Numbered from the stretch's first letter, positions 20,437 to 23,400 are shown. The stretch is DNA of 64,000 bases from Amoebidium appalachense (GCA_963693365.1 CAVNZM010000012.1:1550001-1614000); one strand, 5' to 3'. Notes: generated by a model from the letters alone, not told the origin. A program made the numbers and translations.

Positions 20437-23400
20437 ATGACTTTCACAGACGAGAACGAATGCCCCATTTGCACGGAGCCATACAATCAAACAAACAGAC
20501 AGAAACATTTGTTGCATCCACCCGCCCCGTGTGCCATGTGCCGTCGTTGCTTAGTGTCACTCGCCAAGATAGAGACAGAAAGGGAAAGACAGATACGCAC
20601 GTTGGAGGTCCGTGGATATACAAGGAGGGATGCAGAGTGCTTGGTTGCGCACATGGATGATGACTACCCTTTCATTCCTGGAAGTTTTGACATCACTCCT
20701 GGTTTGCGCTGCCCGTTCGACAGAACATATGTTTTGTGCACCTCGGTACGTTTGTTTGCTCAATTCTGTTCGGCTTCTGATGCTTTGTTGCCCAATGGCC
20801 ATTCTTGTCAACATAAGGATGTTCCTTTCTTCATTCTCCGCTACCCTTCCCTCCTATTCCCTTATCCTTTTCATCCCCTTCCCGATCCTCCTCGCCCCCT
20901 CCCCCCCCCTCCCCACCCCCCCCCCCCCCCCCCCAAATACCTCGCCCTGTTTCTTACACGCTTACAGTTCTCAACATTTGCCATCCCCGCCCTGCCGTCC
21001 TCCACCGGGCTTGGTGGCTCCCTCCCTCCCTCCCTCCCTCCCTCCCTCCCTCCCTCCCTCCCTCCCTCCCTCCCTCCCTCCCTCCCCCAGGCCCTCCATC
21101 TCTCTCTCTCTCTCTCTCACTTTTTCTTGTGCACGTGCACTCGTACGCGTGCTTCGCAAACTCAACATCGCACCTATGCACTAATGCCGCCCTCCTGACC
21201 ACTCCCTGTACGTCTTGACCCTTTATTCACTTTGCCCTCCCCTCGATGTAGTTGATCTCATTCCTTGCCCGCCCCCCTTCCCCCCTCCCCCCCTCAACCC
21301 TCTTCCTTCAACACCTCCTGACACACACTTGCTCGCACTCACACACGCACACACACATGCACACAAGCATGCACGGACCCACGGGCGCGCGTGCACACAC
21401 ACGCACGCGCGCGCGCGCGCGCGCGCGCGCACACACACACACACACACACACACACACACACACACACACACACACACATTGTAACCGTGTTCAAAGCTT
21501 TCTGTCTTCCCCTGCCTTCCCACTGTGTGCTTTAATCCTTCTTTTTTTCTCTTGGTTCTTTTTCCGCCAAACATCTGTCCGTTTCTCATGTTGCTTTGTA
21601 GGCTTGCTCTCATGACGCTACTCTGTCTGTCCCTTTGCTTATCTCAGCGGGCCCTACTTTGCAGCCCCCCCCCCCCCCCCCCCCCCCCCCCTGCCCCTGC
21701 CCCTGCCCCCTTTCCGTTCGAAGACGTTAAAGTTCTGCCCTAGTAAGCGTGTTACTACCCTGCGGCGTGGGTCAAATCTCATATTTTCCCCTCTGATTGC
21801 GAATTCTGCGGCCTTCGGGACTTCATTCTTTTCAGCTGGTGTAGTATGTTAGCCAGGGAAGTATCGACTTAGGTAGCGACGGGGGAGCTTCCTAGAAGCC
21901 CCGTCTCCTGAGTTCCTATCTATATTTTTCTTGCTTCTGCTTACTGCTGCAACTTTAACCCCCGGCCTTTCCCACTGCCCTTGCCTGCATAAGCAACCCT
22001 GCTCGTCTCTGATCAAGACGGGTGACCTACCCATGTTCAAGTGAAACAGAATCTGAGTTGGGTTTCGTTTACGAGGTGAATAGGTCGAAACTCGGGTACT
22101 GTGGATGACGTGGCCCCCCCCTGAGGATGGGCTCTGCTTATTATGCATACATACTCTTTATGTATGGCTTGCATTCTGCATCGTGTTATCCGTTTGTTCT
22201 TGTGTACTTCGTACTTTTTGACGCATTCAAACCCCCCTTCCCCCCCCCCCCCCCCCCTCGTATTTGCACACGTTTGGCCCTCTCACCTATTCTATGTCGA
22301 GCAGCATTGGGTCCCCCCCCCCACCCCCCCCCCCTCCCCCCCCTCCCCCCCAACCCCCCCCCCCCCCCCCAAAAAAAAAAAAAAAAGACACCTGCCTCCC
22401 TCCCCTCGGTCCCCACCCTATACACTCACACACATCACCACCATCAACACCCGGCACAGAATAATGATTGCTCCACCCGAATCATGCCCCCCCCCCCCCC
22501 CCCCCCCGTCGAAACTCGGGTACTGTGGATGACGTGGGCCCCCCCTGAGGATGGGCTCTGCTTATTATGCATACTCTTTATGTATGGCTTGCATTCTGCA
22601 TCGTGTTATCCGTTTGTTCTTGTGTACTTCGTACTTTTTGACGCATTCAAAACCCCCCCCCCCCCCCCCCCCCCCCCCCCCTGATTGTGGGGTCAGTTTA
22701 GAACTGGCTTGCCTACAAATTTGTTTGGCTTATTGATTTTGTTGCTTTGTATGTCTTATGTTCCCTGTTTCACACCCACTAATTCGTACTATCCCCCCAC
22801 TCTCCCCCTCCCCCCCCCCCCCCCCCCCTGTCCCCTCCCCCAATCCCCCCCCCCCCCCCCAAAAAAAAAGACACACACACACACACACACACACACACAC
22901 ACACACACCTCTCTCTCTCTCTCTCTCTCTCTCTCTCTCTCTCTCTCTCTCTCTCTCTCTCTCTCTCTCTCTCTCTCTCTTACACTCACTCTCACACTCA
23001 CCCACTCACTTCCCCCATCCCCCCCATCGCACCCATCCCCCCCCAAGACAAGTGGACTCGCCTATTGCTGTTGAAACAAAGTATGGGTTGGGAACCACGC
23101 GCGAGAGGTCAAAGAGTCGAAACCCATGCTTTTGTGGAGGCATAGGAACCCCCCTGATGATGGGCTCTGTACAAGTGTCTTCTGCCTGCACGCGTAAATT
23201 GCTTGATTTTGGATTTCCCACTTTTGTGACGTTTGGTTGTTGCTCTTTGTTGTCTCCTCCATATTTCCAACCCTCTAACACATACATCACCCCCCCCCCC
23301 CCCCCCCCCCCCCCCCCCCAACCCCCACACAAACAAACACACCATAACAGGTGCAGCCTAAACTCGTCGTTGCAGAGAAAGGTGTCGGTCGTTTTGAGCG

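Follow-up and report, generated by a model that had tools for sequence, protein, structure and literature searches.

Hammerhead ribozymes of types I, II, and III carry three conserved blocks in the circular order CUGAnGA, GAAA, cleavage site and fold around a three-way junction. In the parts of Eckert et al. 2023 considered here (PMC10085705), six possible hammerhead orders were counted on the assumption that CUGAnGA is inseparable from stem II, and non-circular hammerheads were reported to cleave in vitro, in cis. One of these, type SGC (HRIMA-1 and variants), has the order cleavage site, GAAA, CUGAnGA, retains all core bases, and is pseudoknotted, with no three-way junction. Hammerheads also occur in mobile elements: as described in the consulted parts of PMC4209133 and bioRxiv 10.64898/2026.07.22.740005, minimal hammerheads of Penelope-like elements (PLEs) and non-LTR retrozymes are of type I, with circular order and a weak stem III. 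Naiad elements were reported without canonical hammerheads, some of them being flagged “HHR_core” or “HHR_half_core” (Craig et al. 2021, PMC8557442, in the sections considered). Partial tandems, 5' truncation, microsatellite targets, and non-autonomous members are known for Naiad and Chlamys elements from the same sections.

The repeat described here lies in a stretch of 64,000 nucleotides (the window), all of which was analyzed. It has in common with hammerhead types I to III and their Rfam families C3-A9, G12-A15.1, U16.1, H17, and G10.1-C11.1, but its block order is not a circular permutation of theirs. With type SGC it shares the order, all core bases, and the pseudoknotted topology; however, Eckert et al. 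assume that CUGAnGA is continuous with stem II, whereas in the repeat the 5' strand of stem II likely lies upstream of the cleavage block, with two helices (P4 and P5) between A9 and G10.1 (PMC10085705, parts considered). The linker between stems I and II has ~3 nt in type SGC and 18 to 23 nt in the repeat, and type-SGC sequences come from metatranscriptome contigs, while the repeat is a genomic mobile element of a eukaryote (same parts). The repeat resembles minimal PLE hammerheads and retrozymes in its short non-coding tandem units, the base after A9, its palindromes, and the PLE link, but is non-circular, with a stem III of 11 to 13 bp plus an extension; it has the tandem monomers of a non-LTR retrozyme without the type I hammerhead (PMC4209133 and bioRxiv 10.64898/2026.07.22.740005, in part). 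The hammerhead core and the SGC order are already known, and it is the connectivity of the fold that was not found in print: the listings and passages searched contained no split hammerhead core, although the PMC10085705 alignments may include a eukaryotic or split member.

Core words, block order, and covariation in the repeat

The dispersed repeat has 19 profile matches in the window, the 16 stronger of which were inspected. All three core words occur in five copies, namely, A (core at 22121), C (23154), B1 (52258), B2 (57953), and B3 (62859). Identity over aligned columns is 96 to 98% within subfamily B, ~70% between A and B, and 52 to 56% between C and either; an earlier note on this DNA had described C as sharing little sequence with A or B outside the core, but C is homologous to them along its whole length. 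The copies and their parts are as follows.

21715..22232, + strand: subfamily A copy, at least 518 nt, with the full putative fold (sequence comparison, contig depth, split-fold descriptor)
Parts of the putative fold in the A copy, + strand: P4a 21989-21999; P5 22001-22023; stem II strand 22024-22029; GUU 22057-22059; GAAA 22087; core 22121; P4b 22129-22141
22508..22651, + strand: second A fragment, beginning at the GAAA block, just after poly-C
23045..23289, + strand: subfamily C copy, 5' end cut within helix P5, poly-C on either side
23055..23059, + strand: C, putative upstream strand of stem II, GACUC, G10.1 first; partner 23114-23118
23061..23069, + strand: C, 5' strand of the distal stem III extension, partner 23139-23146 (read from the sequence; a homologous helix is present in the B1 fold)
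23078..23092, + strand: C, cleavage block, consisting of the stem III 3' strand, GUU (23087-23089), and stem I GGG; predicted cut at 23089/23090, placed by hammerhead numbering
23098..23103, + strand: C, palindrome CGCGCG in the linker between stems I and II
23113..23132, + strand: C, GAAA block, consisting of the stem II 3' strand, GAAA (23119-23122), and the stem III 5' strand
23151..23161, + strand: C, stem I CCC, CUGAUGA core (23154-23160), and one spacer U
23162..23175, + strand: C, post-core bases, earlier drawn as a stem II strand and reread here as the P4 3' strand, the partner of which is absent from this copy
51992..52391, + strand: B1 copy with the full putative fold (stem II strand 52156, GUU 52190-52192, GAAA 52224, core 52258)
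57508..58087, + strand: B2 partial tandem, 1.28 units of 452 nt, with the full putative fold (stem II strand 57850, GUU 57884-57886, GAAA 57919, core 57953)
62445..62993, + strand: B3 partial tandem, 452-nt period, with a stem III mismatch at 16.3
27819..27960, - strand: B fragment starting at the core after poly-C
27442..27509, - strand: decayed core-only fragment with A7

The catalytic core words CUGAnGA, GAAA, A15.1-U16.1, and H17 are present in five of five copies. In C, stem III has 11 pairs (23078-23088/23122-23132), with CUGAUGA at 23154 and GAAA at 23119; the sequence of 23060-23170 and the pairings of stems III and I in C are as the earlier note wrote them, and a GUU triplet and a UG after the core are indeed common to all five copies. 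These copies had been called complete, but B3 has a U.U mismatch at 16.3, and C starts after poly-C inside P5 and lacks the 5' strand of P4. Position 7 had been said to vary among U, G, and A; the A7 comes from the decayed fragment (27497-27503), in which the following bases have changed too, and says little.

The blocks follow each other as cleavage site, GAAA, CUGAnGA, which is a non-circular order with a pseudoknotted topology. Because of this order, the three-way junction that the earlier note anticipated is not expected, and neither the circular order nor the junction of types I, II, and III is found in the repeat. A descriptor of the order passes at four loci in the window (A, C, B1, and B2) and had no match in 300 block shuffles of the window; with the cores held fixed, none of 100,000 shuffles of C equaled its three stems. 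Rfam gave no match, either for the whole window at the gathering score or for 21600-23400 at an E value of ≤10. At the window thresholds, the SGC descriptor passed at 0 of 88 collection loci preselected for two core words (35 from viral contigs and 53 from metagenome contigs); looser thresholds passed 7 of the 88. The metagenome matches resemble coding sequence, and we took the collection loci to be chance rather than real relatives. When other block orders were sought in the window, the single match (39222-39257, - strand) was rejected, as its stems overlap.

Comparison of lineages A, B, and C reveals four two-sided changes in stems I and III (stem III pairs 3, 6, and 8 and stem I pair 3, stem I being GGG/CCC in C versus GGA/UCC in B), and no cell is broken in nine pairs by three lineages, read in a gapless register from the core. 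When the 10 observed substitutions were placed at random, stems I and III remained equally intact in 9 of 400,000 trials; adding the upstream stem II introduced below brings the two-sided changes to six, and no random placement in 400,000 was as good. Since the count rests on three lineages and the pair ranges were picked after inspection, we regard it as strong support rather than a formal test. The majority sequence of the A family (5144 and 3799 contigs in two DNA runs) repairs the A.A mismatch at 22050, in stem III pair 9 (99.9%), which extends stem III of A to 13 bp, and also repairs a pair of the distal extension at 22114 (95 to 98%). These comparisons give good support to selection for a hammerhead-like RNA structure in the three lineages. 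The earlier claim to that effect holds as far as chance and stems I and III are concerned; the fold that it named is most likely wrong in stem II (no two-sided change), and the topology is a pseudoknotted one.

Three DNA runs, each from a different sample, contained 2688, 2431, and 1530 contigs of subfamily C (contigs, not copy numbers), so that the single-copy status considered by the earlier note does not apply. The window copy differs from the C majority at five listed places, none of them in the core or stems I to III, and longer C copies carry the upstream hairpin as in A and B (loose ends, 24 and 11 contigs, with agreements of 0.69 and 0.91). Gathering C copies had been proposed as a way to reveal covariation, but almost none exists within C: of seven minority variants in the core and stems I to III as drawn earlier, which are unphased and mostly rare, one changes G-U to G-C and six break a pair or the core. 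Such pair-breaking variants are as expected of decaying copies, and the covariation signal lies between subfamilies. The RNA is, in our reading, a real and covarying hammerhead-like fold with predicted self-cleavage.

A probable upstream strand of stem II and helices P4 and P5

The earlier note drew stem II between the bases that follow the core and the GAAA side. So drawn, it pairs over 6 bp in C and B and 4 bp in A, is wobble-rich, has no two-sided changes, and was matched by 500 of 500 shuffles. The six bases after CUGAnGA-UG are identical in all copies, in contrast to a variable GAAA-side strand, and the stem remains at 4 bp in the A majority (22082 A>G reaches only 4 to 5% in the DNA runs). 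The GAAA-side strand has a Watson-Crick partner 33 to 35 nt upstream of U16.1 in all five copies (GACUC in C, GACCUA in A, and GACCC in B), the first five pairs being Watson-Crick throughout. Three two-sided changes were counted in this upstream stem, one of them at a sixth pair that is broken in two copies, and 9 of 500 shuffles were as good. Duplex strength favors the upstream partner in A and B; in C, the earlier stem has a duplex energy of -7.1 versus -6.4 kcal/mol for the upstream partner, and because of this slight preference it may be an alternative form there. Stem II most likely forms with the upstream strand. With that strand, stems I, II, and III all adjoin the core, G10.1-C11.1 is in place, and the stems covary. 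A9 and G10.1 would then likely lie on different strands, bridged by two helices.

The post-core bases pair with the 5' end of the motif as helix P4 (3 bp, a loop, and 7 to 8 bp), which encloses hairpin P5, located directly 5' of the upstream stem II strand. A probing piece of 23045-23190, as proposed earlier, is without the 5' part of the fold. Unconstrained folding of B1 recovered distal P4 (0.95 to 1.0), proximal P4 (0.8), P5, and the long P3. Other copies were less uniform: in B2 and B3, distal P4 is retained but a local hairpin covering the core is favored, and the A window copy is mixed, with probabilities of only 0.15 to 0.27 for P3 and P4; competing hairpins over the core appear in several predicted folds. 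P4 also covaries, as one pair is G-C in A and B versus A-U in full-length C (loose-end consensus and majority base at 23171). A descriptor of the entire split fold passes at A, B1, and B2 and misses C, which is cut within P5, and B3; on controls, its loose form passed at 1 locus in 200 shuffles and at 2 of the 88 collection loci, with weak, partly wobble stems. A local 8-bp helix flanking the C core (23136-23143/23175-23182), an early candidate for an interaction stem, was rejected because the homologous bases in A and B belong to P4 and the stem III extension.

The P5 loop is self-complementary (UGAUCA in A and B, UGGCCA in C), and the linker holds palindromes of 10 nt in B and in the A majority (perfect) and 6 nt in C. 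Palindromes thus occur at two fixed places with different letters in all three subfamilies (22010-22015, 52140-52147, 52200-52209, and 23098-23103), and dimer contacts are possible.

Naiad elements, predicted cleavage, and alternative readings

We compared the repeat by eye with 26 Naiad 3' ends (~330 letters each); motif searches added 3, so that 29 of the 54 listed were looked at (PMC8557442, in part). The split layout (P4a, P5, stem II strand, cleavage block, GAAA block, CUGAnGA, P4b) was seen in 7 of the 26 ends (Bfor, Chem-3, Amil, Aacu with two mismatches, Anas, Movir-2, and Plae; the three Acropora entries are near-identical) and, through the motif searches, in Obim, Ovul, and one unnamed entry. 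The 10 split examples among 29 come from a ctenophore, cnidarians, an acanthocephalan, octopuses, and the unnamed entry. Eight of these 10 have, in the 2 nt that follow A9, no base able to pair with C11.1, which makes a stem II of the kind drawn earlier impossible in them; the two octopus entries could form 2 bp after A9. The palindromic P5 loop of Movir-2 is identical to that of C. Another 12 of the 26 ends had no recognizable motif in the part displayed. Six nematode Naiads (Nbra-1, -2, and -3, Hcon, Hpol, and Asuum) carry, by eye, intact type-CSG hammerheads, which are clean, lie at the end with a flank helix, and have 2- to 7-nt linkers; Eckert 2023 had only two CSG sequences in the parts considered. 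In Naiad_Smim, also among the 26, stem II appears to be a hairpin of its own, placed in the linker that follows the cleavage block and accompanied by a loop pseudoknot, and A9 is again not joined to 10.1. A search with a 6-letter word for more Naiad examples gave mostly noise (1 useful among 30 of 93 places). The Chlamys consensus passages seen (parts 46 and 47) hold canonical type I hammerheads and no split form.

The transcript probably folds into a hammerhead core of four separate strands (stem II 5' strand, cleavage site, GAAA, and CUGAnGA), with self-cleavage predicted after GUU. The sequence evidence covers the block order and the covariation of P1, P2 (with the upstream strand), and P3 with its extension. 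The cuts are predicted after positions 22059, 23089, 52192, 57886, and 62793. After A9, the chain would enter long-range P4, and the partner strand would lead via hairpin P5 to G10.1; P4 and P5 would then be an insert where other hammerheads carry one or two bulged bases, and the two helices, 1 to 2 bases apart, could stack and set A9 beside G10.1. Closing P4 with a loop would yield CUGAnGA, P4, P5, stem II, cleavage block, and GAAA block, which is the CSG order of nematode Naiads with a two-helix insert after A9, so that the split form would look like a circular permutation of CSG opened inside the insert. Once cut, the products would stay together because P2, the long P3, and P4 all join them; this clamp would favor rejoining of the ends into a 452-nt monomer circle, and in a monomer released by two cuts, the termini could together re-form the core, allowing the monomer to circularize. 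Circle closure of this sort was proposed for PLEs in the consulted part of PMC4209133. The element would be copied by a partner reverse transcriptase priming at poly-C/G tracts, which would give 5'-truncated and more-than-unit copies. For an anole PLE, insertion in vitro did not need cleavage (PMC11167929, in part), which speaks against cutting having a part in insertion, as does the flat contig depth across the predicted cut.

It is unlikely, though deserving of weight, that the fold as drawn is now mainly a handle for the partner reverse transcriptase, with cutting lost or too slow to matter. In neither A nor C does contig depth, itself a poor measure, change abruptly at the predicted cut; it rises instead at the C-run that precedes the core, and the cut is spanned by many contigs, as this reading would have it. 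Stem I is short (3 to 5 bp) and the cleavage triplet has U17, which is cut more slowly than C17; at least two conserved genes have sense-strand copies in their introns, a place where rapid cleavage might carry a cost. Minimal PLE hammerheads also cut poorly in vitro (PMC4209133, in part). On the other side, U17 is common among listed PLE hammerheads (8 of the 14 rows considered), and every core base has been retained over lineages of 52 to 70% identity and, judged by eye, over animal phyla, whereas the helices are free to vary. An ordinary type-SGC hammerhead seems quite improbable; in it, stem II would directly follow CUGAnGA-UG, and the upstream strand would be an off-switch. That stem can pair in all five copies (4 to 6 bp), and is the stronger duplex in C, and one- and two-base inserts after A9 are known in hammerheads (PMC10085705 and PMC4209133, parts considered); yet the stem is wobble-rich, gains no two-sided change, is equaled by every shuffle, stays at 4 bp in the A majority, loses to the upstream partner in A and B, and, by eye, cannot form in most of the split Naiads.

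Two further readings have less to commend them. That the active core is made of two RNA molecules joined via the palindromes, a single molecule being inactive, strikes us as very unlikely: self-complementary words with different letters do occur at two places (P5 loop and linker), and dimers were proposed for PLE hammerheads (PMC4209133, in part), but stem III is long and can close within one molecule, Naiad linkers are by eye as short as 2 to 5 nt, and non-circular hammerheads cut in cis (PMC10085705, in part). Chance pairing in a conserved repeat is extremely improbable. It could draw on there being three lineages only and on the loci that the loose descriptor passes among shuffles and preselected sequences; against it stand the shuffle and random-placement tests, the majority letters that repair pairs, and the layout recurring, by eye, in unrelated Naiad sequences.

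For the four-strand core, we give even chances to a wider proposal, that it is an active natural hammerhead with its backbone open between A9 and G10.1 and bridged by two helices, is the missing Naiad ribozyme, is older than animals, and serves as a clamp for circle closure and more-than-unit inserts. If true, the split fold breaks the CUGAnGA-stem II assumption in nature and adds a fourth opening point beyond the six orders. It would account for the failure of descriptor searches to detect hammerheads in Naiads, which are a highly abundant clade of retroelements. It would also extend such an RNA to a likely ichthyosporean, pointing to PLEs with an N-terminal endonuclease in holozoans other than animals. 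Natural variants are already at hand in the three diverged subfamilies that this one genome contains.

Element type and genomic setting

Copies of the repeat terminate in poly-C. Many of them start at the C-run that precedes the core, which we read as microhomology with the target. A C-rich tract lies within the next 30 bases in 14 of 16 fragments; in the other two, which are older, the profile match stops before the end. Subfamily B forms partial tandems with a 452-nt period at two loci, and the depth of A contigs climbs from 5' to 3'. Many short copies start at or just after the core behind poly-C (e.g., 27954-27960 on the - strand, 53593, 57508, 62108, and 62186) and are unable to form the ribozyme. 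Partial tandems, 5' truncation, and microsatellite insertion are traits shared with Naiad and Chlamys elements, but their ORF, an N-terminal GIY-YIG with a reverse transcriptase, was not found for the repeat (PMC8557442, in part): 138 ORFs in the window gave no Pfam match to either domain. The listed targets are (C)n for Chlamys and (TA)n for Naiads, whereas the repeat combines a Naiad-type RNA with a poly-C target, and the Naiad table lists only animals, while the repeat is in a likely ichthyosporean (same source, in part). The element likely fits a non-autonomous derivative of Naiad/Chlamys-type Penelope-like elements, and we do not file it as a member.

B1, B2, and the fragments near 27.5 to 28.6 kb lie in the sense strand between exons of DEAD-box helicase and peptidase M76 genes: B1 is in an intron of a DDX56-like helicase gene, and the B fragment at 27819..27960 (- strand) is in an ATP23-like (peptidase M76) gene, each on the same strand as its gene. 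For A and C, a surrounding host gene is suggested by open frames only. A 61-residue helicase exon has 79 to 80% identity to Ichthyophonus, Sphaeroforma, and CFRG-labelled proteins, the last of which we take to be Creolimax; weaker hits have 72 to 75% with shorter coverage, and two unnamed proteins score higher. This comparison makes an ichthyosporean the likely host. Contigs of A were found in runs X12 and X14 and contigs of C in X12, the RNA nature of both runs being a guess.

The 5' part of A (21863-21980) is similar to the first part of the helicase intron in which B1 lies (51871-51989; local score of 60, a value reached by 0 of 2000 shuffles), from a splice-donor-like GTAGCG onward. One possibility is that an old A-like element gave rise to the B1 intron; another is that A has its own intron, as in Penelope. 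No spliced joint is listed among the A contigs. One A contig has telomere-like TTAGGG-type repeats inserted at the GAAA block (22088-22098).

Elsewhere in the window, related exons resembling seven-helix receptor genes, with no Pfam match, occur in both orientations (1315-1674, 4842-5255 on the - strand, 7320-7787, 12089-12847, and 14967-15485). A cluster of 60- to 210-nt direct repeats, 90 to 100% identical, occupies 17199-17884, and two segments ~7 kb apart, 19275-19730 and 26598-27039, are inverted and 98 to 100% identical.
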